DNA of 64,000 nt, taken from positions 4,277 to 68,276 of the forward strand of contig JAFTQC010000069.1 in NCBI GenBank assembly GCA_017462965.1, given 5' to 3'. Below, piece by piece: positions 4,244 to 55,305 of the stretch (the first letter of the stretch is position 1; every line of letters starts with the position of its first letter). The notes beneath the pieces are model-generated. The model saw nothing but the letters and a program-made list of their open reading frames with translations, searched no databases and was not told the DNA's origin. This stretch comes from Clostridia bacterium (GTDB lineage Bacteria > Bacillota > Clostridia > TANB77 > UBA1234). The position numbers and the translations under genes are program-made.

Positions 4244-4370
4244 ATTTTATGTAATCAAAAAATAAATCAGAGTTTCTAGCAGGATTTTTAAAAGTTTTGT
4301 AGTAATTATAAATTTAGTTGGGTAAAATATCCAACATTCATTACTAGAAATAGAAAGGACGTGCGTTTTA

Positions 4371-4788: not shown

Positions 4789-4856
4789 GGTCATCAAGAG
4801 GGACAGCCCTTTTTGATGAATTTCTTTCTCAAAAAGGGCTGTCCCTCTTGATGACC
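4789..4856. repeat. A-module palindromic element (ggtcatcaagagggacagccctttttga / tcaaaaagggctgtccctcttgatgacc)
   Basis: 28-bp arms that are exact reverse complements around a 12-nt loop. Confidence 0.9.
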
Positions 4857-13274: not shown

Positions 13275-14555
13275 ATGATTTGTTTGGAGAATTTAAATCA
13301 AAAAACTCTCAAAATTATTGCAGGAGTAATAGCTTTTTTGATAGTCGCAATTTTAATATTTCTTGGAGTAACTGCGGAAAGACCTCCGAAAGAAGTTGAT
13401 GAAGGAATTGCGGAAATATTTAACAACAATGAAAAGATAGTACATCATAGTGGAGATATTTATTGTTATACGAATATTTTTAAGGATAACAAATGGACAA
13501 ATGTTTTGTTGAAGCTTCCAATTGAATTTGATGATTCGACGCCAAGAATGATTGTTCATGAATTTTCATCTATGGTAGAAAATATTAAGTTGAATTTTGA
13601 AAATAACAGACTTTTTTATATGTCTGGTGCGAGTACATATATGTATAACATAACACAAAATAGAATTGATAGGTTTTGTGAAGGTGAATTACAGTTTATG
13701 TGTGAGCCTAATTCCTTCGTGACGCTTACTGATGGTAATCTTTATAAATGCGAATATTATCCTGCAACTTATTTTACAAAAAATGTTACAAAGCTTGCGG
13801 ATGGTACTTTTAAGAGATATGACGAAGATGAAAATAGGGTGTACTATTCTACTTCAGCTGGTTCAAATTCACTTGTTGTTGCATTAGATAAGGAAACTTT
13901 AAATATTATTCTTATAGATAATTTTCCGACAAAAGATATGCAAATAGAAGATGTTTTGGTTACAGATAACTATGTATACGAATTGATAAAAAGTAATGAA
14001 GGACCTTTTGTGAAAAAAGTATCAAACAAATCAAAAAAGGAAAATGAGAAAATAGAATTTACGAAGTTGCCTATTAATGATGCAGAATATATCGAGTTTA
14101 TAGATTCAAAATACTCAAAAAAGTTAGAGCCTATGAAGAAAAAAGAGGACGACTCTTCAAGTGATGATTTGTATTTTTATGTGGGTGATTTAGAACTAGA
14201 TCCTAATGCTTATACGATTGGTTATATTGTAGCAAGTAAGGAGGCACATAAATATGATGAAGCGACAAATAAAGTTGCTTCATATGATGATAATACTTTT
14301 AATGAAACTTGGTTAGATAATTATTCATTGTTCCTTAATGGTGAAAATGTAGAATTGTATCACAACAACAAATATATAACTTCTGTTAAGACAAGCATAA
14401 CAGAGGATGTTAATTTGAAAATGAATAGTGTAAATATAATAGGAGATTATTTGTATTATGAATTTCAAATCTCTAATTCAACTAATACAGATACTGTTTT
14501 TGCTAGAACGATGAAAACAGGTGGAGTATCTCAAAGAATTAATATTCCAGAATAG
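13275..14555 (+). CDS. hypothetical membrane-anchored protein (426 aa)
   Basis: N-terminal TM segment. No motif recognised. Ends at the palindromic element 14570-14650. Confidence 0.5.
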   Translation: MICLENLNQKTLKIIAGVIAFLIVAILIFLGVTAERPPKEVDEGIAEIFNNNEKIVHHSGDIYCYTNIFKDNKWTNVLLKLPIEFDDSTPRMIVHEFSSMVENIKLNFENNRLFYMSGASTYMYNITQNRIDRFCEGELQFMCEPNSFVTLTDGNLYKCEYYPATYFTKNVTKLADGTFKRYDEDENRVYYSTSAGSNSLVVALDKETLNIILIDNFPTKDMQIEDVLVTDNYVYELIKSNEGPFVKKVSNKSKKENEKIEFTKLPINDAEYIEFIDSKYSKKLEPMKKKEDDSSSDDLYFYVGDLELDPNAYTIGYIVASKEAHKYDEATNKVASYDDNTFNETWLDNYSLFLNGENVELYHNNKYITSVKTSITEDVNLKMNSVNIIGDYLYYEFQISNSTNTDTVFARTMKTGGVSQRINIPE

Positions 14556-14569
14556 AAATTTGAAAAATT

Positions 14570-14650
14570 GGGACGGAGTCATCAACGGGGACAGCCCTTT
14601 TTGAGAGAGTGCTCTCTCAAAAAGGGTTGTCCCTGTTGATGACTCCGTCT
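14570..14650. repeat. A-module palindromic element (81 bp) serving as a bidirectional terminator between convergent genes
   Basis: gggacggagtcatcaacggggacagccctttttgagagag / ctctctcaaaaagggttgtccctgttgatgactccgtc arms. Confidence 0.9.
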
Positions 14651-14659
14651 TAATTTCCA

Positions 14660-16366
14660 TTATTTTATTTCAATACAATAAATTCTTTTTCCTCGAGTTC
14701 CGATAATAATTTTGTTATCATATATTGCTGGAGATCCTTCGATGTTTCCGCCGCCAGTGTTTAAAGTATATAATGTTTCACCTGAAAGCGGATCAATTAA
14801 AAGTAACTGTCCGATAGAATTTCCAAATATGACGTACGATTTGCCAGAATTCGAATATATCGCAACAGGTGAGCTCCAAGAATATTTTACTAAATCTTTT
14901 TCCCATATAACTGTTCCATTTGTTTTATCTAGTGCAACCATTTTCCCGTTGTAAAAGGAGGTTACTTTTGAAAAATTAAAGATTACCAAATTTGATATAT
15001 CATTTTTACCGATGACAGGTGAAGAGAGAACACCACCATTTACACTTGCGTCATATAGGCAATCGCAAGAATATTCCCATAAAACTTCGCCGGTAAGACC
15101 ATTTATTTTTCGAACTACGGCAGGTGACGTAGTTTTCCTTCTGTCAACTTCGCATGCTGCATAAAGCATAATAGTTCCATTTTCTTCTTCAAGGCCAAGT
15201 GTGGCGTCACAATCATCTTCCATTTGAAAATTCCAAATAGGAGTTAAGGTATTTAAATCTAGGCATTGAACGATTCCATTGTTGTTCATAAAATATCCAT
15301 AATTTTTATAGACAGCGAGTGCGTTTTCGATACCTCCGGCTTTGCCGTTGACAGTTGAACGGTATCTTGTAATATCAGGATTAATTGAAATCGTTCCATT
15401 TTCTTTGTCGTATGTCGTATTCAATTTAACAATATAAATTAAACCGTTTTCACCCGGTAACATTAATGTATCATTTTTTGAATCTATTATAGGATTGCCG
15501 TCAAATGCACCCCAGCCAAGATAAGCATATTTGTCACGACCGTTTATAAATAGCAATTCTTCACCAGTAATCAAACTAAAAATGTGATATCCCATTTGAA
15601 CTGATTCACCACTTACTTCGTTTATCCCTTGTCCAACATAAAGTAGAGGATATCCTCTAGGATCTATAGTAACACTTCCTTTAATAGAACTAGGAACAGC
15701 AATTGTGTCTCGTGTTGGTGCGCCAGTTTCTAAATCATAGAAATGAACTTTACTATCTAATGCACCATATATGACTTCTATAAAATTTTCCTTTTGTTTG
15801 AATTCGTCATACAAATTCATGTTTTTTCTTGTTTCATCATTCCATTTTATAATAGCAGGTTGTCCATTCCAGCCAACACCAGTCCAATTGTCAGTTTGTC
15901 CAATTGTGTTAGTCCAAATTTTTGATAATTTTTTCTCTGTAACATCTAATGAACCATAAAAGGCACTATCGCGATAGTTGTTTCCTCTAAAGGTTGTAAT
16001 ACCTTCGACTTGATTGTAAGTATCCGAACTATCTAGATATAAATTATTTGAATAAAGTGTGCCATTACTTGTTTGTATTTGATAAGTATGAGGAAGATCT
16101 GGAGCAACAACTACAGGAGGATCTTCAATAATATTATTATCATCGCCAGAGTTAGGTAACGAATTATCACCGGATATAATGCTTAAATCGCCACTTGATA
16201 TATCATTCTCAATGTCACCTGAACCATCACCAGAAGTAATCACAATATTAGAATTGTTTCCTTCATGTTTATTTTGAACAATTTTAACGTTAACTTCTTG
16301 AAGAATAATTAACGTCAAGAATGCAATAATTAAACAAATTAATATTTTCCAATTTTTATTATTCAT
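14660..16366 (-). CDS. PQQ-like beta-propeller repeat protein, membrane-anchored
   Basis: N-terminal TM. Repeated propeller-blade motifs (VIYGALDSKVHFYDLETG..., GTIVWEKDL..SSPVAI.., IIIGTRGKRIYCIEI). Confidence 0.65.
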   Translation of the reverse strand: MNNKNWKILICLIIAFLTLIILQEVNVKIVQNKHEGNNSNIVITSGDGSGDIENDISSGDLSIISGDNSLPNSGDDNNIIEDPPVVVAPDLPHTYQIQTSNGTLYSNNLYLDSSDTYNQVEGITTFRGNNYRDSAFYGSLDVTEKKLSKIWTNTIGQTDNWTGVGWNGQPAIIKWNDETRKNMNLYDEFKQKENFIEVIYGALDSKVHFYDLETGAPTRDTIAVPSSIKGSVTIDPRGYPLLYVGQGINEVSGESVQMGYHIFSLITGEELLFINGRDKYAYLGWGAFDGNPIIDSKNDTLMLPGENGLIYIVKLNTTYDKENGTISINPDITRYRSTVNGKAGGIENALAVYKNYGYFMNNNGIVQCLDLNTLTPIWNFQMEDDCDATLGLEEENGTIMLYAACEVDRRKTTSPAVVRKINGLTGEVLWEYSCDCLYDASVNGGVLSSPVIGKNDISNLVIFNFSKVTSFYNGKMVALDKTNGTVIWEKDLVKYSWSSPVAIYSNSGKSYVIFGNSIGQLLLIDPLSGETLYTLNTGGGNIEGSPAIYDNKIIIGTRGKRIYCIEIK

Positions 16367-16439
16367 AATTAAACCTCTTTAGTAATTTTGTACACAACTA
16401 ATAATACATAATTTGATAAAAAAAGACAAGAGCATTTCA

Positions 16440-16600
16440 GCAAGAGGGACGCCACTTTTTGAGAGAGCGTGCCATCAACGGGGACAGCCCTTTTTGATAA
16501 ATGTAAGAATTAATAGTAGTGCAAATTATTTTTACTTATTTATCAAAAAGGGCTGTCCCCGTTGATGGCACGCTCTCTCAAAAAGTGGCGTCCCTCTTGC
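16440..16600. repeat. nested 161-bp palindromic MITE-like element (A-module outer and inner arms around a 49-nt AT-rich core)
   Basis: Outer arms gcaagagggacgccactttttgagagagcgtgccatcaacggggacagccctttttgataaat and its reverse complement. An inverse copy lies at 25547-25712. Confidence 0.9.
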
Positions 16601-16634
16601 AATAAAAAAACCTCTCACCAAAAAAGGTGAGAGG
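16601..16634 (-). terminator. rho-independent terminator of the ABC exporter gene
   Basis: cctctcacc aaaaaa ggtgagagg hairpin preceded on the plus strand by aataaaaaaa. Confidence 0.75.
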
Positions 16635-16647
16635 CTGCTCATAAAGG

Positions 16648-18408
16648 TTATACCATGTTGACATGATAACTCATGTCGTTTTCGGAGTGTTCGAAGTGCA
16701 AGTGCATGGTTGCAACTTCATAGGCAATGTTCGTCTGATGCGTCGCGAAGAGTACGACCTTGTCAGTGCACATTTCTTTGATGAAGCGAAGAACCTGAAG
16801 ACCAATTTCATCGTTAAGGTTATTGGTTGCTTCATCGAACGCAACAATCTGAACGGTGTCGTCAAGATTCATCAGTGTGCGAGCGAGTGAGAGGCGCTGA
16901 ACCTGTCCGCTCGAATACTGATCGGTACCACTATTGTCCAGGAAAGCGAAGACATCATCGGTCTTTTCGCTGATTTCCTGATACAGATGCAGTCCACAGA
17001 GAATCTGGAGGAGCTTTTCGCGGTCATAATCAGCCTTGCCGAGCGTGATTTCTTTCAAGATAGAGTTGGAACCGAGCATAGTCTTGTCCTGATGAAGGAT
17101 AGACTTAGTGTTTCCTTCTTTTTCTTTCTCGATGTTCAATGCGAAACCATCAAAGTGAAGATTGCTAGTAAGCATCTTGATGAGAGTGCTTTTGCCAGAA
17201 CCTGTGGTTCCAGTGAGAACAGCAAAATCACCAGGCTTCATGCTGATAATGTCGCTTGAAATGAGTTCGAAAGGCTGGTTGCCGTTCGTTGACGCATAGG
17301 TGACACGGAATGCGGGCAGAGAGAGTCTCGACAGTCGAGTAACTTCGAGATCATCGTTTTCGGTTTGCTTTTCGTAAACCGCAAAGATGTTGTCAAAGTC
17401 ATTCTCATAAACCAAACGCTCTTCCTTAATTTCACGCCAGTTATCACCAATATAAATAAAACCGCTGATTCGACGAGTGAATTGAGAATAAATTGTGACC
17501 AACGAAATTGCGCTGACCAGAGTCTCAAGGTTCACATTCGCAAAACCAACTTCCCAAATCTTGAGGGCAAGAAGTGAGAGTGTGAAGAAGCTTGTAGCAA
17601 GGTTGCTGACCGTACGAATAAGATTGATGCGTCTTTGAACGGTTCGTTGCAACAGGAAGCTTTTTTTGCTTGCATCAACGTAGTTGTTGGTGATAAAGAG
17701 CGCATGCTCATTGCTTATGGGCTCAAGTAGCATGATGTTCTGTCGTGCTTCCTCAGTAATCATTCGAGCTTTTCTCTGCTGATTGCGATAAGTATTTCGC
17801 GTTTTCAGTCTGATGTTGCAGAAGAGCAACTCGAAGATAGAAGAAACGATGACCAGAATGATGAAGATGCCAGTGTGTTCAACTTCAAGAGTTGACACTG
17901 CCAAAAGACCAATGAACATAATAACGGCAGAAACAATGTCGATGCCGTTCCTGAGGAAAAACGTACGGATTTCCCAAGTGTTTGCGAGGAATTCGTGACA
18001 TGTCTTGAGAATCTTACTCGAAGGCATCTTCTCGTCGAAGCCTTGCAGTTCATTTCGGTGCTGGACTTTTCCCTTAACACGAAGCAGAACATCGGCTGCA
18101 TTTTTGGTCAGGAAAATGTCCTTGTGTTCTCTGAAGATATCTTCACGTTCTTCAACAAAGGTTCGAGTAAAGTTCTCGAGAGGGAACTTCACGTAGTGAA
18201 GCGAAATGAGCACCAGAGAAAGAACTACATGTCCTTCAATCATCGCATTCTTGCTAAACTGCAAGAGGAAGGAGCCGGCGTCCATCATAAGACCAAAAGC
18301 GAGATTGATCAGAGTCAGGATAATGAACTCCTTCAGAAGTTCACGCGGCATTTGGAGAAACGTGGAACGCTTATTCATAAAAAACCTCCAGTTGTGTGTC
18401 ATAACCAA
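16648..18408 (-). CDS. ABC exporter, fused permease/ATP-binding protein
   Basis: N-terminal TM domain plus C-terminal NBD. Walker A GTTGSGKST, signature SSGQVQRLSLAR, Walker B IVAFDEAT, H-loop FATHQ. Visibly GC-richer than flanks. Terminator 16601-16634. Confidence 0.8.
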   Translation of the reverse strand: MVMTHNWRFFMNKRSTFLQMPRELLKEFIILTLINLAFGLMMDAGSFLLQFSKNAMIEGHVVLSLVLISLHYVKFPLENFTRTFVEEREDIFREHKDIFLTKNAADVLLRVKGKVQHRNELQGFDEKMPSSKILKTCHEFLANTWEIRTFFLRNGIDIVSAVIMFIGLLAVSTLEVEHTGIFIILVIVSSIFELLFCNIRLKTRNTYRNQQRKARMITEEARQNIMLLEPISNEHALFITNNYVDASKKSFLLQRTVQRRINLIRTVSNLATSFFTLSLLALKIWEVGFANVNLETLVSAISLVTIYSQFTRRISGFIYIGDNWREIKEERLVYENDFDNIFAVYEKQTENDDLEVTRLSRLSLPAFRVTYASTNGNQPFELISSDIISMKPGDFAVLTGTTGSGKSTLIKMLTSNLHFDGFALNIEKEKEGNTKSILHQDKTMLGSNSILKEITLGKADYDREKLLQILCGLHLYQEISEKTDDVFAFLDNSGTDQYSSGQVQRLSLARTLMNLDDTVQIVAFDEATNNLNDEIGLQVLRFIKEMCTDKVVLFATHQTNIAYEVATMHLHFEHSENDMSYHVNMV

Positions 18409-18580
18409 TAGTGTAAATAAGTCGAGTGGTGAACAGAGAGACTATGGTTGTAATTACGTCGCTACATGCACATACTCCTTTCATTTTTCACAGTCAAAAA
18501 GACGACTGTTTATTTGGAAAACTATGACTTTTTAGTCGATAACATTATATCACACTTTTGACATTATGTAAATTCAAAAA

Positions 18581-18646
18581 GGACAAAGGGACGGGGTTTT
18601 TGTCCTTTTTTGGAAATTGGGACGGTTCCTTTTTCAAAAAATGGTC
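18581..18646. repeat. composite element: B-module (ggacaaagggacggggtttttgtcc) plus C-module arm (ggaaattgggacggttccttttt)
   Basis: Same modules recur at 21950-22046 and 39899-40033. Confidence 0.85.
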
Positions 18647-18667
18647 CTATCTATACGTGTAATCTGG

Positions 18668-18697
18668 TTGACAATAAAACGATATGGGTTGTATAAT
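18668..18697 (+). promoter_or_regulatory. sigma-A-like promoter of the Zn-ribbon protein gene
   Basis: TTGACA - 18 nt - TATAAT, then the gaggagg RBS. Confidence 0.55.
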
Positions 18698-18765
18698 TTT
18701 TTCGTTGCAAATCAGTGTGATGAGCATGGTTAGAATAAACTTTGCTAAGTAGAGGAGGAAGACGC

Positions 18766-19758
18766 ATGAACAAGGAAAGATGTGAACTTTGTAACCGTAT
18801 TTTGAATCCGGAGATTGCTCTTGGAGGAGCAGATTTTGCCAGATTTGGTCAGATTTGTCGGAAGTGTCTGGAAGACTTAAGAAGTAGGGATGAATATGCG
18901 TATGATGAACATGGGCATATGCTTACACCCGAAAAGAACAATTTTTCATTTTGGTTTCCTAAGGTTGAACATTGTGGGCTGAAAGTGCCAAAATCACTGA
19001 TATTCAACGTGCCTGAAGAAATTCAGAATCGTTTTTTCTTGGAAGGCGAAGATGATTACGAAGTCATTGATAATTGGCTTAAGGTGAGTGTACTTCCTGC
19101 TTTGAAAGAAGCGGATATGCATTTACTTTTTGTGAAGAATGCGACATTCAGTAATAAGTTTCTTGCGACGAGTTGTATGGCTACACAGCATACGCTTCTT
19201 GATGCGATTACTTCAATTAACTATGGAGCGTTGATGGTTGGCGCAGAAGGATTATCAGAATTTGTTGTGCGTGAACGCATTATGCATAATAGTCAAAGTA
19301 CACCGTGCATTTACCATGGCCTTCCTCTTAGGTCTGAATTCAGAGTTTTCTATGATTTCACGAAGCACAAGGTAATTTTTATAGAGAATTACTGGAATTA
19401 CGGCTATGTATTTCCGAATCTGCACGATGCTACAGACAAGATTGTTTTTGAGCACGAAAGAGAACGTCTTGAAAGAGAATTTGATAGCAGAAAGCAGGAA
19501 GTCTCTGAACTTGTCGCAAGTGCAATGCAGAATGTAGAGGGTTTCGAAGGTCCTTGGAGCGTAGATATTATGCTTGAAGGAAATACATATTATCTGATCG
19601 ATATGGCGCTTGCTGAAACGTCCGCGTATTGGACGAATAGACCTGGTTATGAACGAGTTCATGCGCGTGAACTCGAAGTACGAAACAGAAGGAGACAGCA
19701 GTTGAGACCTGCTGCTGTGACTAAGCTAGATCCAGCAATAGTTGAACTTCTTGAATAA
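18766..19758 (+). CDS. hypothetical protein with N-terminal CxxC...CxxC zinc-ribbon (331 aa)
   Basis: CELCNRI...CRKC at N-terminus. GC-richer than host. Sigma-A-like promoter TTGACA/TATAAT at 18668-18697, RBS gaggagg. Terminator hairpin 19774-19809. Confidence 0.55.
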   Translation: MNKERCELCNRILNPEIALGGADFARFGQICRKCLEDLRSRDEYAYDEHGHMLTPEKNNFSFWFPKVEHCGLKVPKSLIFNVPEEIQNRFFLEGEDDYEVIDNWLKVSVLPALKEADMHLLFVKNATFSNKFLATSCMATQHTLLDAITSINYGALMVGAEGLSEFVVRERIMHNSQSTPCIYHGLPLRSEFRVFYDFTKHKVIFIENYWNYGYVFPNLHDATDKIVFEHERERLEREFDSRKQEVSELVASAMQNVEGFEGPWSVDIMLEGNTYYLIDMALAETSAYWTNRPGYERVHARELEVRNRRRQQLRPAAVTKLDPAIVELLE

Positions 19759-19773
19759 TTTCACAAACTAAAT

Positions 19774-19809
19774 GGACAAGTGGGACGGAGACACTTGTCC
19801 ATTTTTTTT
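19774..19809 (+). repeat. B-module hairpin (ggacaagtgggacggagacacttgtcc) plus T-run, terminator of the Zn-ribbon protein gene
   Basis: 9-bp perfect stem with the GGGACGG loop core, followed by attttttt. Confidence 0.85.
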
Positions 19810-19852
19810 AAATGAAATATAATAATGGATATATTAAATTTTGGAGGCACAA

Positions 19853-37422: not shown

Positions 37423-37447
37423 CGTAACATAATACGTTACCTTTTTG
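37418..37447 (+). terminator. terminator of the DUF512 gene
   Basis: ggtaacgt aacataat acgttacc hairpin plus tttttg. Confidence 0.7.
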
Positions 37448-37476
37448 TTGACTTTTGGAATAAATTTCTGTATAAT
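37448..37476 (+). promoter_or_regulatory. AT-rich sigma-A-like promoter driving the 60%-GC gene 37520-38296
   Basis: TTGACT - 17 nt - TATAAT. Confidence 0.55.
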
Positions 37477-37519
37477 AATACTTGGTAGACCCAATAAATT
37501 TTTGAAGGAGGACACAATC

Positions 37520-38296
37520 ATGTCCAAGAACGCAAGGTCCAACAACAACGCCACCCGCAACACTGCCCGACCGACCGCCGCCCGCAATGCTCAGCAGGTG
37601 CGCAAGCAGCCCGCCAAGCACAGCCGCAAGCCTCAGCAGCCCAAGATGGCGAGCTCTAACAAGTGGATGCTCATCATTGGCGTGGGCTTCCTGGCACTCC
37701 GGCTGATCTTCCCGGATCTGATGGCCATCCTGGGTTCGTCCCTGACCGGCCTGACCATCCTGGCAGTCATCGCGATTGTCCTGGCTGTCGCTGCGTACAT
37801 CTACAACCTGTCCGTTCCGGATTTCATCGGAAGCCTCTTTTCTGGGCTCGTCGGTGCCGTGAACAGCAGGAAGCCTCAGAAGCGTCAGGCTCGCCGCGCC
37901 ACCTCGTACTATGAGGAGGACGAGTTCGAGTATGACGAAGAGGTTGTAGAGCCTGATGAGATTCGCTATGCTGACGAATACGACGACTATGACGACTATG
38001 ATGACTCTCCGGTTGTCGAAGCCGTGGTCGTCGAGGAGGAGCCTCCGGTTCCCCAGATGCATCGTCGTCGCAGGCCTGTAGAGGCTGTGGTCGTCGAGGA
38101 GGAGCCTCAGACCCCGTCTTTTGCTGAAGCTGTGCGGATGCAGAAGCCGAGCGTTGAGGTCCCTGAGGGCTACGAGTGGAAGCTGGAAGGCAACAAGTGG
38201 GCGATTCGCCCCATGACGCCGCCGGATATTGACATTCCGGATGGTTTCGAGTGGAAGCTTGATGGTGGCAAGTGGAAGGTTGCCCCGAAGGCTTGA
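37520..38296 (+). CDS. GC-rich membrane protein with basic N-terminus, two TM helices and acidic internally repeated C-terminus
   Basis: About 60% GC by eye, in contrast to the host. Host-like promoter TTGACT-17-TATAAT at 37448-37476 and RBS gaaggagga. Internal repeats PVVEAVVVEEEP x2 and EGYEWKLEGNKWAIRP/DGFEWKLDGGKWKVAP. Confidence 0.6.
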   Translation: MSKNARSNNNATRNTARPTAARNAQQVRKQPAKHSRKPQQPKMASSNKWMLIIGVGFLALRLIFPDLMAILGSSLTGLTILAVIAIVLAVAAYIYNLSVPDFIGSLFSGLVGAVNSRKPQKRQARRATSYYEEDEFEYDEEVVEPDEIRYADEYDDYDDYDDSPVVEAVVVEEEPPVPQMHRRRRPVEAVVVEEEPQTPSFAEAVRMQKPSVEVPEGYEWKLEGNKWAIRPMTPPDIDIPDGFEWKLDGGKWKVAPKA

Positions 38297-38425
38297 TCGG
38301 ACCGACTACCAGGGGCGCTGCGGTGCAGCGCCCTAATCCATTTTAAATTAATCTTTGGAAAGAAATTTCCGAGGTTAATAAGATAAGAAACTCATACACC
38401 ATGACTAACAACAAGGAGGATAAGT

Positions 38426-39094
38426 ATGGAAATTGCTGCAATGATGGATTACAGCGAAATGGACAAGAATTATCAGGGTTTTATGAAGAACTCCTTTGCG
38501 AGAGCAGAGGCTGCCAGAACGGTTATTCAGGATATCGAAAAGCTGTCTGGCCGGTCATTCACGATTGAAGACGCTGCCAAGATTATCGATGTTATCACTT
38601 GGTGCGATATCGAGGATGGCGTTACCGTTTTCATGCCCTCTGATGCCCCGAAGGATAAGCGCTTTGTTGGTAAGGTTGAGCTTCCCACGGAGCACGTACT
38701 TTTTTATTTCGGCAAAAATCGCGCCGCTGGTGCACGATTCCCTTATGCACTGGGTGTGCGCTTCCGGTTCAAGCAGAATCATGAGCTGCTTCGGATGAAT
38801 CTGGAATATGTGAAGAAGGAGTATCCGACCTTTGCAAAGTCCATTCAGGCTGTTGTAACTCCTGACACCGAGTATCAGCTGAAGGTGTATCCGAAAGCTG
38901 CAGAGTTCTATGCTGCAGTCAGACACCTCAAGGGTGAGTGGCTTATCCAGGAGCCGTCTCACAAGGGTCAGTTTGTTCCCAACAGGGGTATTGGCCTCAA
39001 GGAGAAGAACAGCAATGTTATCCACATCTTCGAGCCGCACCCGCGTGTCAAGGCTTCGAGAAAGTATGCGAAGCGAGTCTGCTTTTCTTTTTAA
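38426..39094 (+). CDS. GC-rich hypothetical protein (222 aa)
   Basis: RBS acaaggagga. Terminator hairpin 39131-39160. No motif recognised. Confidence 0.55.
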   Translation: MEIAAMMDYSEMDKNYQGFMKNSFARAEAARTVIQDIEKLSGRSFTIEDAAKIIDVITWCDIEDGVTVFMPSDAPKDKRFVGKVELPTEHVLFYFGKNRAAGARFPYALGVRFRFKQNHELLRMNLEYVKKEYPTFAKSIQAVVTPDTEYQLKVYPKAAEFYAAVRHLKGEWLIQEPSHKGQFVPNRGIGLKEKNSNVIHIFEPHPRVKASRKYAKRVCFSF

Positions 39095-39898: not shown

Positions 39899-40033
39899 GG
39901 ACAATGGACAGTTTTTTGGAAATTGGGACGGTTCCTTTTTCCAAATTTAATTAAAGGATTGCTAATTAAAATATATAGTTGTAAATTTGGAAAAAGGAAC
40001 CGTCCCAATTTCCAAAAAAACTAAAAAGGGTCC
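39899..40033. repeat. 135-bp composite palindromic element (31-bp perfect C-module stem) inserted between the T-box terminator and the pheS RBS
   Basis: ggaaattgggacggttcctttttccaaattt at 39918-39948 and its exact reverse complement at 39984-40014. Outer B-like half-sites ggacaatggacag / gggtcc. Confidence 0.9.
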
Positions 40034-43471: not shown

Positions 43472-43473
43472 TA

Positions 43474-43530
43474 GCAAGAGGGACGCCCCTTTTTGTGAAA
43501 ATTTTTCACAAAAAGGGGCGTCCCTCTTGC
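43474..43530. repeat. 57-bp perfect A-variant palindrome (gcaagagggacgcccctttttgtgaaaa / ttttcacaaaaaggggcgtccctcttgc) immediately after pheT
   Basis: Exact reverse-complement arms. Acts as the pheT terminator structure. Confidence 0.9.
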
Positions 43531-43583
43531 TAAAAAAACCACCCCATACCCAATTGTATGAGGTGGAGAGATGGTTGTGTGTG

Positions 43584-44066
43584 TTACATGCTGAATTTGT
43601 CGTAGCGCCATACGCAAGCCCAGACGTCCTGTGGTGCTTCGAAAGTGCATTGTCCCAAAATGTCGATAGCTTGCTTGATGAAAGCCTCCTTGAAGACATC
43701 GCGCAGCTTCGGGTTCCAGAAAAAGAGATTCATGACGGGAGTCTCATACTGGATTCGAACTTTTTTGCACATGACCAAAAAGGAGGTTTGCAGCCACCGA
43801 ATAGAGACGTTGGTCAGTTCGGTCTCGTCAGGGAATTCCTTTTGGAGCGCGCTCAGAATGGTCTGGATGGAACGTTTTGCAACGGCCTGAGCAGCAGCTT
43901 CGATACGTTCTTGACGCATGAAGAACGTGACAAAGTTGAGCGTGTTTTGGGCACTGTCACAATAGGTGATGTCGGCATACCTTGATGCAATGTAGTCAAA
44001 GATTGCCACAGCTTTCGCCTGCACCTTTGTGAGTTCCAGTTCCTTTTTTACTTCATTTCTGTTCAT
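43584..44066 (-). CDS. GC-rich hypothetical protein (160 aa)
   Basis: Convergent with pheT. Own hairpin terminator about 43539-43568 preceded by an A-run on the plus strand. Confidence 0.5.
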   Translation of the reverse strand: MNRNEVKKELELTKVQAKAVAIFDYIASRYADITYCDSAQNTLNFVTFFMRQERIEAAAQAVAKRSIQTILSALQKEFPDETELTNVSIRWLQTSFLVMCKKVRIQYETPVMNLFFWNPKLRDVFKEAFIKQAIDILGQCTFEAPQDVWACVWRYDKFSM

Positions 44067-44440
44067 CTCTGATTTTCTCCTTCCTAAAATACGTGGTTTG
44101 CAGGTTTTGAATCGGTGTGCGTTCTTTTGTGTTTTAATCTATGTCCAAATTGCCAAACTTCCACTTAGGAAGAAATGACAAGAAAACTTGTATACATAAT
44201 ATTATAATATAAAACTTGAAAATGAGCAACATATGGGGGTTCAAGTTGAATATATTTGATTGAAAATAATATAAAAGGATGATATACTCGCATTTGTAAG
44301 TAAAGTCTATGATTTTGTGCGAATTGATGCAAATTATAGGCAAAATACAGAAAATGAAGGGAGGATAATTCCGAGATAAATTGTTACGCGACGTGAAGGC
44401 TGTATTCAAAGACGACATAACAATGAAAGGATGAGTGATC

Positions 44441-45778
44441 ATGAAGTTACGCCTTGAAGTTTCTCTGTTGGACGCTTTTGGTGATAGCGAGTTCCTAAAA
44501 CGGATGAATGCATTTAATGCACAGGTGGAACTTGATAGTAAGAAGGGAATCCTTCAAGTATCGAATCTTGATGCTTCTGAGTTCGATGAGATTGTGGAGT
44601 ATATCAAGGGAACATTTAAGGTTCGTAGGGTCGAGATGATTCCTGATGAGCGGAAAGAGCCGTCCACGGTTAAGGTGATGAGTGAGGATGCTATGGAAAA
44701 GAATAGTAAGCCTCAACAAATTGAATTTCCCAGAGCGGAATTCAGTCACAAGCTTATTGAGGAACGTGTGAACAAGTTCCTTCAGGTTGCTGGAATGGCT
44801 ATCAATCGTAACAATGCTGAAGCAAAGTCGATTGCAAGTTTTATTTCTACGGCCATCTGTGAGCTGGCAATGATGTATCATCCGCATCCTTTGGTGGATA
44901 TCAAGGTTGGTGACATAGTTACTTGTAACTATGGTTATCATATGCCTGGTGAGGTTAGCGGCCGGTATGTGCATTCGGTTGTTTGTGCGATTGACGACAG
45001 TCTTGCGTATGTTGTGCCGATTACGAAGGACGCTCGTGACGATGGTGGGGTGAAATTTCTTTCATTCTACAGCGTATATGACGTGACTTATACTGACCCG
45101 ATGTGTAAGGATTACGCTGGTGGTTCCATGCTTTTACAGCATGGCAGGTGGCTGTGTCGTGAACGAATTTCTGGTGTTGTGGGGTATGCGCATCCTCGCT
45201 TCATGAGTGAAATTCTCAGGATTTTGCCAGGGACGTTGTACTTTGCGTATGACGGCTATGAGCAGGTAGAAGAGGATGTATCTGCCGACGACGAACCGGA
45301 TGATTTCGATATTACCGAAATGGAAATTCCGGAACTTCCATTTCTTGATGATGAATCGCCGGAAGTGGAAGCCAAAGAAGTTGCAGTAGAAGAGGTAGAT
45401 GTTCCGAAGTGTTTGAAAAACAGTTCATTGGAAACAGCTCTCTACAAGAAATTTACAGAAGGTCTTAGTCGCATGACCAAGGACATGTCGCTGGATTACA
45501 ACATTAATTTCTTCTGTGAAGCTCTTGGACTTCCGGCTGACGAAGGCCTGCTTCGTGCTGCACTTAAGATTGTAGCTGACATGGAGAAGGTTTCTCAAAT
45601 TTCCATCAAGGCAATTGTTTCTAAGTTTTCTTTGTTTCACGAGACTCTGGAGCAGCAACTGCAGGAAATTTGGAAAGGATGGCTTGCTAAGCATCCGGAA
45701 ATCAAGGAAGAATATCCGCATGCCAGCTTCTCGTCGATTTGCAGGTTTTTCTTCAAACTTGTCACAATTGAAAAATAA
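44441..45778 (+). CDS. GC-rich hypothetical protein (445 aa), central segment weakly MazF/PemK-barrel-like, acidic linker
   Basis: Divergent from the 160-aa gene. VGDIVTCNYGYHMPGEVSGRYVHSVVCAIDDSLAYVVPITKD has a weak resemblance to Kid/PemK/MazF GDIxxVDF...RPxVVVS..VxPxT. Confidence 0.5.
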   Translation: MKLRLEVSLLDAFGDSEFLKRMNAFNAQVELDSKKGILQVSNLDASEFDEIVEYIKGTFKVRRVEMIPDERKEPSTVKVMSEDAMEKNSKPQQIEFPRAEFSHKLIEERVNKFLQVAGMAINRNNAEAKSIASFISTAICELAMMYHPHPLVDIKVGDIVTCNYGYHMPGEVSGRYVHSVVCAIDDSLAYVVPITKDARDDGGVKFLSFYSVYDVTYTDPMCKDYAGGSMLLQHGRWLCRERISGVVGYAHPRFMSEILRILPGTLYFAYDGYEQVEEDVSADDEPDDFDITEMEIPELPFLDDESPEVEAKEVAVEEVDVPKCLKNSSLETALYKKFTEGLSRMTKDMSLDYNINFFCEALGLPADEGLLRAALKIVADMEKVSQISIKAIVSKFSLFHETLEQQLQEIWKGWLAKHPEIKEEYPHASFSSICRFFFKLVTIEK

Positions 45779-49435: not shown

Positions 49436-49475
49436 AAACCTGTGAGTCGCAAAAGCGGTCTCACAGGTTTTTTGT
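49436..49475. terminator. bidirectional terminator between the BI-1-family gene and the HD-domain gene
   Basis: aacctgtgagtcgcaaaagcggtctcacaggtt hairpin plus tttttt. Confidence 0.75.
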
Positions 49476-49477
49476 TC

Positions 49478-50032
49478 TCATGCCAACTCCGCAATGCGGG
49501 AGATGGCGGTCTCGATACGTTCATTGATGCCAGCCAGATTCTCATCAGAGCGAATCGTGCCGGCATCATCGGCCTCGTGAAGCATCATCACCTCATGAAT
49601 GAACGCGTCATCCACTTCGATTTCGATGCCAGCCTTCTTCAGGGCCTTCTGACAGAGCTTCGGAACCACGGTATCCGTCTCGTCCTTGTTGATCACGTTG
49701 TAGGGCGTCATGTGGCACAGAATCAGTGCCTTGACGCGCTCGTAACGCGCATCATCGGGAGTCAGGAACTGGCTCAGCTCTTCATCAGTCACCTTTTCGT
49801 GGCCATAGAAGCAGGGCTGATTGATCTTGTTGTATCCCTGTGTACGCGGCTTCGCAATGTCATGCAGGCAGGCTGCGATGAGCATAGCAGAATCAGTAGT
49901 TCTTTTCGCCATCTCGTCGATCACAAGGAGACAGTGCTCCTTGAAATTCTCGAGGTGATACTTACTTACGTGCGGAAGATCTTTATGGTCGTCGAAGAAA
50001 CGAAGAAGAGCAGAAGCGTTGAACATGTACAT
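49478..50032 (-). CDS. HD-domain phosphohydrolase
   Basis: HD motif ACLHDIAKP, ..HE... downstream. Noticeably GC-rich relative to flanks. Shares the bidirectional terminator 49438-49475. Confidence 0.7.
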   Translation of the reverse strand: MYMFNASALLRFFDDHKDLPHVSKYHLENFKEHCLLVIDEMAKRTTDSAMLIAACLHDIAKPRTQGYNKINQPCFYGHEKVTDEELSQFLTPDDARYERVKALILCHMTPYNVINKDETDTVVPKLCQKALKKAGIEIEVDDAFIHEVMMLHEADDAGTIRSDENLAGINERIETAISRIAELA

Positions 50033-50270
50033 ACCTCCAATTTAATAGTGTTGAAGTTTTGTTTTGCAAAGTTATTCACCATGCACATATTATTATAGCA
50101 TAATTTACATAAAAAGTAAATATAAATGGCAATATATGGTAATATTTGTTTTAATGATAGTTATAAGATTTATTAATATTTGCCAAGAAAATACAAAAAA
50201 ATTGACAATTGTTTCAAAGACATGTTAACATAATTATAACAATGGTTAATAGTAAAAGAGGTGATGAATT

Positions 50271-54216: not shown

Positions 54217-55305
54217 ATGAGGACGGAGCGGAACATCCTGGTAGCATTCTTGCTGAATGCGTTTTTCTCGGTATTTGAATTGATTGGAGGTATCTTCACT
54301 GGAAGTGTTGCGATTGTTTCAGATGCTGTGCACGACCTGGGCGATGCGCTGAGCATTGGGCTTGCGTACGTGCTTGAAAAGAAGAGCAAGAAGCAGCCGG
54401 ACGGTCAATACACGTATGGTTATGCAAGGTATTCGGTCTTGGGAGCGCTCATTACCAGTACGATTCTGATTGTCGGTTCAGCGTTTGTCATCGCAAATGC
54501 CATTAATCGCATTATCAATCCTGTCGCAATCAATTATGACGGAATGATTATCTTTGCAATTATTGGTGCGAGCGTGAACTTCTTGGCAGCATACTTCACA
54601 CGTGAAGGCGATTCACTCAATCAAAAAGCCGTCAACTTGCATATGCTTGAGGATGTTTTAGGATGGGTAGTTGTCTTAATCGGAGCTGTAACAATGAAGC
54701 TTACCGACTTTGGCATTATCGACCCTGTACTTTCGATTCTCGTCGCAATCTTCATCATGGTAAATGCGCTGAAATCTTATAGGGCGATTCTGGACCTGTT
54801 CTTAGAGAAAATGCCGGCTGGATTTGACATTGAGCGAGTAAGGAAAACCTTGACTGAAGTCGAAGGCGTAAGCGATGTTCACCACATTCACATTTGGAGT
54901 ATGGATGGAATGAGCAACTACGCGACCATGCATGTAGTTTCGGATTCTGACGATGTGGTGCTTTTGAAGCAGACAGTTAGGGGAAAACTGAAAGAACTGG
55001 GTATAAGCCATGTCACACTTGAGATTGAAGGTGCAACTGAAGAATGTGCTGAAAAAGAATGTAATGTTGAAGTGACAACGCATGCACATGGTCATCATCA
55101 CCACCACCATCATCACGGCCATTCGCATACAGGGCATAATGGGCAGTGTGGCTGTCATGAGCATCACCACGACAAACTGATACATTTCAAAGGTGAAACG
55201 AGCTGCAGTTGTTGTTCCACAAAATATAAGAAAATCCCGACGTGGGACCGGCAGGGAAAACATAAGAATCTGTGGTATGACCCGACGAAAAATTCCAAAG
55301 AGTAA
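54217..55305 (+). CDS. cation diffusion facilitator (CDF) family metal exporter with His-rich C-terminal tail
   Basis: Six TM helices, HDLGD motif, cytoplasmic domain, tail HAHGHHHHHHHHGHSHTGHNGQCGCHEHHHD. GC-richer than flanks. Confidence 0.85.
   Translation: MRTERNILVAFLLNAFFSVFELIGGIFTGSVAIVSDAVHDLGDALSIGLAYVLEKKSKKQPDGQYTYGYARYSVLGALITSTILIVGSAFVIANAINRIINPVAINYDGMIIFAIIGASVNFLAAYFTREGDSLNQKAVNLHMLEDVLGWVVVLIGAVTMKLTDFGIIDPVLSILVAIFIMVNALKSYRAILDLFLEKMPAGFDIERVRKTLTEVEGVSDVHHIHIWSMDGMSNYATMHVVSDSDDVVLLKQTVRGKLKELGISHVTLEIEGATEECAEKECNVEVTTHAHGHHHHHHHHGHSHTGHNGQCGCHEHHHDKLIHFKGETSCSCCSTKYKKIPTWDRQGKHKNLWYDPTKNSKE

Follow-up and report, generated by a model that had tools for sequence, protein, structure and literature searches.

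We analyzed a 64,000-nt stretch of the genome of a Clostridia bacterium (positions 4,277 to 68,276 of contig JAFTQC010000069.1, assembly GCA_017462965.1; hereafter the window), focusing on a GC-rich patch at 16640-19760 that holds two divergently oriented genes, one for an ATP-binding cassette (ABC) exporter and one for a protein with a Zn ribbon. A first reading of these letters (the original prediction) had taken the patch for an acquired island in which the two genes form a pair bracketed by repeats. Our results indicate that the patch is probably made up of two independent single-gene transcription units lying back to back, each with its own signals and its own history, and that the repeats were inserted separately. 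We consider the units separate because the two genes have divergent consensus promoters and a terminator each (Table 1). The first unit would be a 1.97-kb cassette that runs from the promoter through a leader and the ABC gene to the terminator, whereas the second would be a chromosomal, Zn ribbon-fused copy of a large ATP-grasp family of mobile elements that resembles the R2K clade. The same genes, identical and in the same order, are present in three independent assemblies, and the arrangement is thus not an assembly artefact. Related loci that were compared with the window are labeled with L-numbers (L004, L008, L011, L026, etc.).

The ABC Exporter and Its Relatives

The ABC gene is read here from position 18378, the start called in the public assemblies, and not from the upstream TTG at 18408 that had been proposed. 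Its product matches Pfam ABC_tran (E 1.5e-11, 45.5 bits against a cut-off of 25), and all motifs of the nucleotide-binding domain (NBD) are invariant in 13 sequences of the family: Walker A (GTTGSGKST), the Q-loop (Q430), the signature (SSGQ, 489-492), Walker B with the catalytic Glu (FDE, 514-516) and the H-loop (H547). The transmembrane domain (TMD) is too divergent to be matched by Pfam ABC_membrane; its assignment therefore rests on an AlphaFold2 model of moderate confidence (mean predicted local distance difference test, pLDDT, 78), which shows six helices (12-35, 51-101, 120-165, 169-217, 223-277, and 284-342) with long intracellular extensions. In Foldseek, this model aligned over its full length with MsbA, HlyB, PCAT1, Atm1, McjD, and TmrAB (E 1e-15 to 1e-17). 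Given the Pfam NBD, the invariant motifs and the full-length fold alignment, the protein is best modeled as a complete ABCB-type (type IV fold) half-transporter, in agreement with the complete TMD-NBD half-transporter originally predicted. It would be catalytically intact and would presumably act as a homodimer that exports some substrate.

The protein shares with MsbA, McjD, TmrAB/TM287-288, Atm1, and the cores of PCAT1 and HlyB the order TMD to NBD, six long transmembrane (TM) helices and the NBD motifs. Unlike MsbA-type exporters, it not only lacks the ABC_membrane match but also has no NCBIfam model near its cut-off: the exporter models (CydC/D, NHLP exporters, PrtD, MsbA) align to residues 124-565 and score far below theirs. 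The PADLOC matches cover the generic NBD only. Compared with the PCAT1 and HlyB types, there is no C39 peptidase domain by Pfam or NCBIfam (the protein opens directly with TM1) and no adjoining membrane-fusion partner, outer-membrane partner or precursor gene. With no C39 domain and no conserved small open reading frame (ORF) nearby, the protein does not have the features of a PCAT or bacteriocin exporter.

A further difference is that this family is limited to a handful of uncultured Clostridia. A search of 5.8 billion proteins returned 13 clusters of close relatives (E <= 6e-139, 42-100% identity to the query), and the next match was a generic ABC protein at E 5e-9. True members occur in 3 of 185,579 species-representative genomes, all of them uncultured Clostridia or 'Eubacteriales', one from a sheep rectum. 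We found none in IMG/VR viral contigs or in plasmids, and none in any GC-richer organism; all known relatives are in low-GC hosts. The genomic position is stable. The ABC gene adjoins the same gene in nine of the ten contexts seen (the window, L004, L011, L022, L024, L025, L026, L027, and L028), across a span of 42-97% identity of the ABC protein. This constant neighbor (14660-16366, minus strand) encodes a PQQ/BamB-like beta-propeller protein of 568 aa that is anchored in the membrane and contains a low-complexity, SGD-rich linker. The first unit would thus be an old resident of a clade of uncultured ruminant-gut Clostridia, nearly always beside the beta-propeller gene.

Base Composition and the Question of an Acquired Island

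Sliding-window analysis gave 26-35% GC in the flanks, rising to 41-48% at 16500-18450 and to 38-44% at 18600-19800. As a baseline for GC content at third codon positions (GC3) we used the 57 ORFs of the window taken as genes (median 0.224, robust SD 0.051). The ABC gene (44.4% GC, GC3 0.52) lies 5.8 robust SD above this median and the Zn-ribbon gene (40.6% GC, GC3 0.34) only 2.3, and eight neighboring genes have 29-33% GC and a GC3 of 0.21-0.27. A composition that differs from the flanks, as originally predicted, is therefore confirmed both along the window and gene by gene, although the computed GC contents stay below the 45-50% first estimated.

The patch is not the only one of its kind. At least four other GC3-outlier islets lie within the same 64 kb (37445-39094, 43584-45778, 49442-50098, and 54217-55305), and the patch is thus one of several. 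These four have a GC3 of 0.44-0.70 against the median of 0.22 and are surrounded by low-GC genes of the ordinary type. For most of their ORFs there is no match in Pfam or PHROG, and one is a cation diffusion facilitator (CDF) cation-efflux gene; the plus-strand ORF at 49442-50098 may be the shadow of a gene on the opposite strand.

The idea of a recent island from a GC-richer donor, whose composition has not yet drifted to that of the host, draws on the GC3 deviation itself, on a history that differs from that of the flanks, and on the fact that the family of the Zn-ribbon protein is carried by mobile elements and also occurs in organisms of 48-55% GC. For the patch as a whole we consider this very improbable, and for the ABC gene it is refuted. 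The ABC gene is present and syntenic in the nine related contexts, down to 42% protein identity, which the original prediction had itself named as grounds against an acquired island, and its GC3 exceeds that of the flanks in every lineage (0.28-0.52 vs. 0.13-0.25). The excess is seen, for instance, in L026-L028 (0.46-0.51 vs. 0.14-0.25) and in L022 and L024 (0.28-0.39 vs. 0.13-0.24). Because the gene is an outlier in all nine syntenic contexts, slow drift after an old import cannot explain its GC3 at such divergence. The absence of relatives from GC-richer hosts, phages and plasmids also argues against a recent donor, and the marks of mobility are missing: there is no tRNA in the window, no integrase among the neighboring genes and no flanking direct repeat. 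The repeats are unrelated insertions (see below). Absence from close relatives, as expected of an island, was seen for the Zn-ribbon gene only, since that gene alone is variably present; for the ligase gene alone, an acquired origin is plausible. We return to the reading of two separate units, in which the high GC3 of the first would be a lasting property of the ABC gene in every lineage and not the trace of a recent import.

Exchange of Exporter Alleles

Substitution rates differ sharply between the cassette and its surroundings. When the window is compared with L026, synonymous substitutions per site (dS) amount to 0.11 in the ABC gene, to 0.9-1.15 in genes of the left flank and to 0.33-0.63 in those of the right flank; in the comparison with L004, the ABC gene is saturated and the right flank has a dS of 0.24-0.51. 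In blastn against L026, a block of 96.5% identity covers exactly 16606-18574, from terminator to promoter, with 77 and 76% identity on either side and 88.6% beyond these flanks. The terminator, inside this block, is 100% identical in L026. The identity matrix of the ABC proteins resolves two allele classes, {window, L026} and {L004, L011}, discordant with the neighboring gene, which is star-like. The divergence of the ABC protein is about twice that of the beta-propeller protein. We read this as old ABC alleles that have been swapped by recombination among the lineages of the clade as a block reaching from promoter to terminator; the gene would be fast-evolving, with deeply diverged allele classes. 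A second ABC paralog, 32-40% identical, lies beside the first in L022 (5931-7661, convergent) and in L027 (8028-9770, tandem), which suggests a heterodimeric pump in these two loci.

Such a pattern could also be expected if the exporter were involved in biological conflict, for example by exporting or conferring immunity to a strain-specific toxin or by serving as a receptor for phages or bacteriocins, with diversifying or frequency-dependent selection acting on the gene and recombination raising its GC3 by biased gene conversion. The fast evolution of the protein relative to the neighboring gene, the deep allele classes exchanged among lineages and the extra paralogs in L022 and L027 are in line with this, as is the tendency of recombining bacterial genes toward higher GC3 through GC-biased gene conversion (PMC4450053). 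However, the ratio of nonsynonymous to synonymous substitution rates (dN/dS) between the close alleles of the window and L026 is 0.14 and hence does not point to positive selection, the locus has no visible toxin or immunity partner, and the left flank is strongly diverged too but has no GC3 excess. Moreover, the excess of 0.25-0.30 seems to be above the effects of biased gene conversion in bacteria. Overall, we consider a conflict-related exporter unlikely, and favor a resident exporter whose alleles recombine within the clade.

A Conserved Leader Upstream of the Exporter Gene

The promoter of the ABC gene is kept upstream of all 11 ABC copies for which upstream DNA is available, and the leader recurs in these 11 copies, including L008, L024, and the paralogs; within the window, the promoter/leader motif is present in a single copy. 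The paralog of L022 keeps the hairpin of the leader (the promoter of this copy is beyond the contig end), and that of L027 keeps the promoter without the hairpin. The promoter and the first ~110 nt of the leader are conserved far beyond the silent sites of the ABC gene. This part contains a hairpin (18490-18509) with a 6-bp stem and the loop GUCUUUUU, followed by an element that resembles a Shine-Dalgarno (SD) sequence (GAAAGGAG, 18475-18482) and, in the clade of the window, by a mini-ORF (ATG TGC ATG TAG, 18462-18473). About 85 less conserved nucleotides then lead to the GGAGG and ATG of the ABC gene itself. The loop is invariant and U-rich (G-U-Y-U-U-U-U-U), while the stem varies. Across the 11 copies, 66 of 66 cells of the stem alignment are paired and six of six pairs show compensatory changes, against 18-42% pairing in slid controls, with the register of the hairpin 24-mers set by hand in a way that favors pairing; independently, RNAalifold found four of seven pairs to be compensatory. 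In the distant copies L027a and L028, it is the ABC start codon itself that this SD serves. The mini-ORF has one to three codons and is kept in the nearest lineages, though not uniformly. No Rfam family matches the leader, no terminator was found inside it, and the folding energy of the whole leader is no better than that of shuffled sequence (z 0.36).

The closest parallel is bmrB-bmrCD of Bacillus subtilis, which likewise combines a Firmicute ABCB-type exporter with a conserved leader containing an SD and a short ORF, and in which the exporter is induced via a leader peptide and transcription attenuation (PMC4191407). The window leader differs in that it has no detectable terminator/antiterminator pair and an ORF of only one to three codons; its conserved feature is the covarying hairpin with the U-rich loop. 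Expression of the exporter would probably be controlled after transcription initiation, through the leader hairpin and the SD-like/mini-ORF element. Options for how this could work are translation of the mini-ORF, an interaction between loop and SD, and binding of a protein to the hairpin. It is possible, if doubtful, that the whole ABC cassette is a self-contained unit at a fixed site whose GC3 of ~0.45-0.5 against 0.2 has persisted through deep divergence, even as its alleles moved among lineages, because it is actively maintained, either by selection acting on the transcript or by a recombination hotspot with biased gene conversion, and that the U-loop hairpin together with the SD is a new cis-regulator.

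A Zn Ribbon Fused to an ATP-Grasp Domain

The product of the second gene is 100% identical to protein IJX99_09980 of a metagenome-assembled genome. The N-terminal Zn ribbon that had been predicted is indeed present, in a protein of 330 and not 331 aa and with a spacing of CxxC-x20-CxxC (C6, C9, C30, and C33; nt 18781-18864) and not CxxC-x15-CxxC. It is followed by an ATP-grasp core (residues ~57-290) and a helical C-terminal tail that ends in ELLE. The -10 hexamer of its promoter is invariant in the aligned relatives, and the window, L004, and L005 share TTGACA as the -35; in L011 it reads TTGACT, in a segment that the aligner had placed elsewhere. A terminator hairpin equivalent to that of the window was found in L004. 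Relative to L004, the gene has a dN of 0.125 and a dS of 2.1, as expected under purifying selection.

An ATP-grasp reading had been considered in the original prediction and set aside as weak, a verdict that the predicted structure overturns. The AlphaFold2 model (pLDDT 93) has 147 Foldseek matches in the PDB at E <= 0.001, led by Cdc123 (E 3e-7) and followed by D-Ala-D-Ala ligases (Ddl), PsnB (rank 10), LysX/ArgX, and RimK-domain proteins. These matches identify the ATP-grasp fold; for Cdc123, Ddl, PsnB, LysX, and RimK the probability is 1.0 but TM-scores are only 0.3-0.54. The best matches among viral structures are viral ATP-grasp proteins and giant-virus Cdc123. In a family alignment of 38 sequences, K124, S129, K131, E165, E191, R193, D267, and D279 are invariant, the two aspartates within the motif SVDIML...LIDMALAE, in which the Asn position is an Ala (LIDMA) and E284 is nearby. 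We thus consider that the protein is, on the strength of this model, a Zn ribbon fused to an ATP-grasp domain.

The family seems to form a branch, not described so far, of the Cdc123/R2K clade (Burroughs, Zhang & Aravind 2015, PMC4431377); it has the ATP-grasp fold in common with that clade, whose type member, Cdc123, is its best structural match. The R2K clade is characterized by an absolutely conserved Lys in a RAGNYA strand and a second Lys/Arg in the next loop, the glycine-rich motif of that loop having been lost (PMC4431377). The window protein is alike in all three respects: K124 lies in strand 121-125, which we equate with 'RAGNYA strand 2' by position and not by superposition, K131 follows seven residues on in the next loop (FVKNATFSNKF), and there is no Gly-rich motif. 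Like the bacterial R2K families (PMC4431377), it has a sporadic, phage-centered distribution. On the other hand, it has no significant D123, R2K_2, or R2K_3 match, its last strand carries D-M-A instead of E-x-N (variants of this metal motif exist in R2K.3; PMC4431377), and in the window subfamily the core is fused to the N-terminal Zn ribbon and the C-terminal helical tail.

Sequence searches gave little else. Pfam (at E <= 0.1), NCBIfam, and PADLOC returned nothing for the 330-aa protein, and a match at 9e-24 was to phrog_12834, a PHROG without an assigned function. Only four of the 38 family members touch R2K_2 (E ~0.06). A profile of the family found no PDB sequence at E <= 10, and a second profile-based homolog search, aimed at Pfam-annotated R2K proteins, returned only proteins without a Pfam domain on record; none of the homologs listed has an ATP-grasp Pfam domain on record. 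The family is a large one: at 50% identity it comprises 1609 representative clusters. Its members are encoded by Clostridium phage Maintenon, by SPbeta-like phages of Staphylococcus, by phages of Streptococcus and Fusobacterium, by 123 IMG/VR contigs, in a prophage-like region of Flavonifractor plautii, and on megaplasmids of Lactococcus, Bifidobacterium, and others. No neighbor is conserved across 80 viral loci (the best neighbor family occurs in 18 of 80), and we found no literature describing anti-phage systems of this type based on ATP-grasp enzymes. Only the ~7 nearest clusters have the Zn ribbon and the C-terminal tail. The wider family also includes proteins of 594-597 aa with two tandem ATP-grasp cores and a subfamily of ~440-490 aa whose members are extended at the N-terminus by 150-200 residues lacking a recorded Pfam domain (proteins P0173 and P0314).

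The biochemical activity of the Cdc123/R2K clade is still debated. LysX/ArgX and RimK ligate onto the C-terminal Glu of a small protein, and LysW, a partner of this kind, is a Zn-ribbon protein. The combination of an ATP-grasp domain, a Zn ribbon and a C-terminal Glu (ELLE) in the 330-aa protein could be likened to LysX/ArgX with LysW and to RimK with S6; in contrast to LysX/LysW, the ribbon is part of the enzyme instead of a carrier on its own, the sequences are not homologous, and no amino-acid biosynthesis genes are nearby. Graspetide ligases such as PsnB also have the ATP-grasp fold. However, the window locus has no precursor gene, similarity to PsnB is below that to Cdc123, and the motif set differs, with the double lysine of the R2K type; the graspetide-like reading that had been entertained is thus unsupported. 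Judging from the fold and the invariant residues, the protein would most likely catalyze the ATP-driven ligation of an amino acid or peptide to the carboxylate of a protein or peptide.

Association Between the Two Genes

The ABC and Zn-ribbon genes are divergent neighbors in L001, L004, L005, and L011-L013. However, the ABC gene stands beside the beta-propeller gene without an adjacent Zn-ribbon partner in L024, L025, L027, and L028, the partner occurs without the ABC gene in L014, and in L026 an ABC gene of 97% identity lies next to a partner of which a 690-bp deletion has left 100 codons. The truncation in L026 and the four ABC-only loci imply that the ABC gene functions without the partner, and the pairing that had been predicted is not obligate. 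The second unit would be dispensable and sporadically lost.

Gene clusters for peptide natural products are known to combine ATP-grasp ligases with ABC exporters. By analogy with dipeptide-antibiotic or ribosomally synthesized and post-translationally modified peptide (RiPP) clusters, the two genes could therefore form a functional module in which a tagged protein or a small, peptide-like compound is made or modified by the ligase, with the exporter either secreting this product or shielding the cell from it. Divergent adjacency in at least four lineages, renewed proximity in the unrelated context of L008 among other GC-rich genes, and the presence of PsnB among the fold matches of the 330-aa protein could be explained in this way. 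Yet in L026, where the ligase is truncated, purifying selection acts on the ABC gene, four loci have the exporter alone and one the ligase alone, a recombination breakpoint falls between the two genes, and the wider ligase family never adjoins this ABC gene and has no conserved neighbor. Nor is there a conserved ORF in the 387-bp spacer or downstream that could be a graspetide precursor. The original prediction was right that the spacer (18409-18765) holds no precursor; it does hold small ORFs, the largest being 37 aa. This ORF (18484-18371, minus strand) was considered as a precursor or leader peptide and rejected, because it is not conserved, its ATG being lost in L004. We regard a functional module as decidedly unlikely and retain the interpretation of two single-gene units.

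In L008 (4480-9931), a distant relative, two blocks stand between the ABC and Zn-ribbon genes: a low-GC block with a 97-aa Cys-containing membrane protein, a MacB-type ATPase with an FtsX permease and a 312-aa protein, and a block of three GC-rich genes without a known domain (381, 72, and 153 aa), for which no homologs were found in the window or in PHROGs.

Repeats and Other Features of the Region

The palindromic element on the left of the patch and the composite repeat in the spacer (Table 1) are dispersed insertions resembling miniature inverted-repeat transposable elements (MITEs), specific to this lineage, and not the borders of an island. This follows from their distribution: neither is present in L026 or L011, and at the two sites L004 carries other modules. 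The palindrome segment is exactly missing from L026, where its flanks are contiguous, and the composite is missing from L012 as well. Thus, the repeats that had been described exist, including a palindrome with 63-nt arms, the two hairpins of the composite and the terminator, whereas their bracketing of an island does not stand. The elements would have been inserted into intergenic gaps of this lineage. Copies of the palindrome family lie at 4792-4853, 14533-14688, 16440-16600, and 25545-25711, and also at 39912-40019 and 43472-43532; the core of the family, AAAAAGGGCTGTCCCCGTTGATG, has eight half-sites in contrast to zero expected. The second module of the composite is a copy of one arm of the 39912-40019 element. 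The window has 11 GGGACGG sites where 0.8 would be expected; as a rule they lie in loops of hairpins between genes, many of which also serve as terminators. In L004, the same modules occupy the corresponding intergenic positions in other arrangements. Rfam at gathering thresholds returned nothing across the window, and relaxed matches of the 161-bp palindrome to plant miRNA and plastid hairpin models were rejected as artefacts of long perfect hairpins.

Table 1. Coordinates of genes, expression signals and repeats in and around the patch (window positions).
Feature	Position	Strand	Details
Palindromic MITE-like element	16432..16605	.	Perfect 63-nt arms 16440-16502 and 16538-16600; 35-nt loop
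ABC intrinsic terminator	16609..16636	-	11-bp stem, then T-run
ABC half-transporter gene	16648..18378	-	576 aa; six long TM helices, then NBD
ABC 5' leader	18379..18543	-	Hairpin 18490-18509, SD-like element, mini-ORF; ~160 nt
ABC promoter	18544..18572	-	TTTACA, 17 nt, extended -10 (TGTGATATAAT)
Composite of two GGGACGG-loop hairpins	18575..18660	.	Modules ~18576-18646, between the divergent promoters
Zn-ribbon gene promoter	18668..18697	+	TTGACA, 18 nt, TATAAT; 12/12 matches
Zn-ribbon/ATP-grasp gene	18766..19758	+	330 aa; ribosome-binding site GAGGAGG
Zn-ribbon gene terminator hairpin	19765..19809	+	18-nt arms, GGGACGG loop, T-run
GGGACGG sites	4187, 14570, 18588, 18619, 19782, 21957, 21994, 22025, 39925, 40000, 52643		

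Downstream of the Zn-ribbon gene, TrkH is encoded in two overlapping plus-strand ORFs in different frames (19841-20374 and 20322-21230), which cover positions 37-165 and 188-497 of Pfam TrkH. L004 and L026 show this split as well, with low dN, so that a sequencing error is not the explanation; TrkH is here either genuinely made in two pieces or produced by a programmed frameshift.

Discussion

Several points weigh against the view that the patch consists of two unrelated units, or against parts of it. In L008, an unrelated context, both genes occur again, 5.8 kb apart (51% identity for the ABC gene and 54% for the partner); this closeness goes beyond what chance would lead one to expect and might stem from co-transfer or from some loose link in function. 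For the first unit, the hand-set register of the hairpin alignment favors pairing, and GC-biased gene conversion is an unproven candidate for the cause of the GC3 excess. For the second, no sequence model of the known R2K families (D123, R2K_2, R2K_3) is significant, and membership in that clade is based on fold and motif only.

We see nothing here that would amount to a new kind of system. Rather, the locus is a counter-example to the view that a GC-rich patch marks a recent import: its strongest compositional outlier is also the most stably placed gene, and the adjacent repeats are coincidental. The analysis brought to light a family of ~1600 ATP-grasp clusters without a Pfam match on phages, prophages and megaplasmids and, in front of an orphan exporter gene, a small candidate RNA element in the form of a covarying hairpin whose U-rich loop is invariant. 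If the composition of the exporter gene is indeed maintained, the other GC-rich islets may be further cases.

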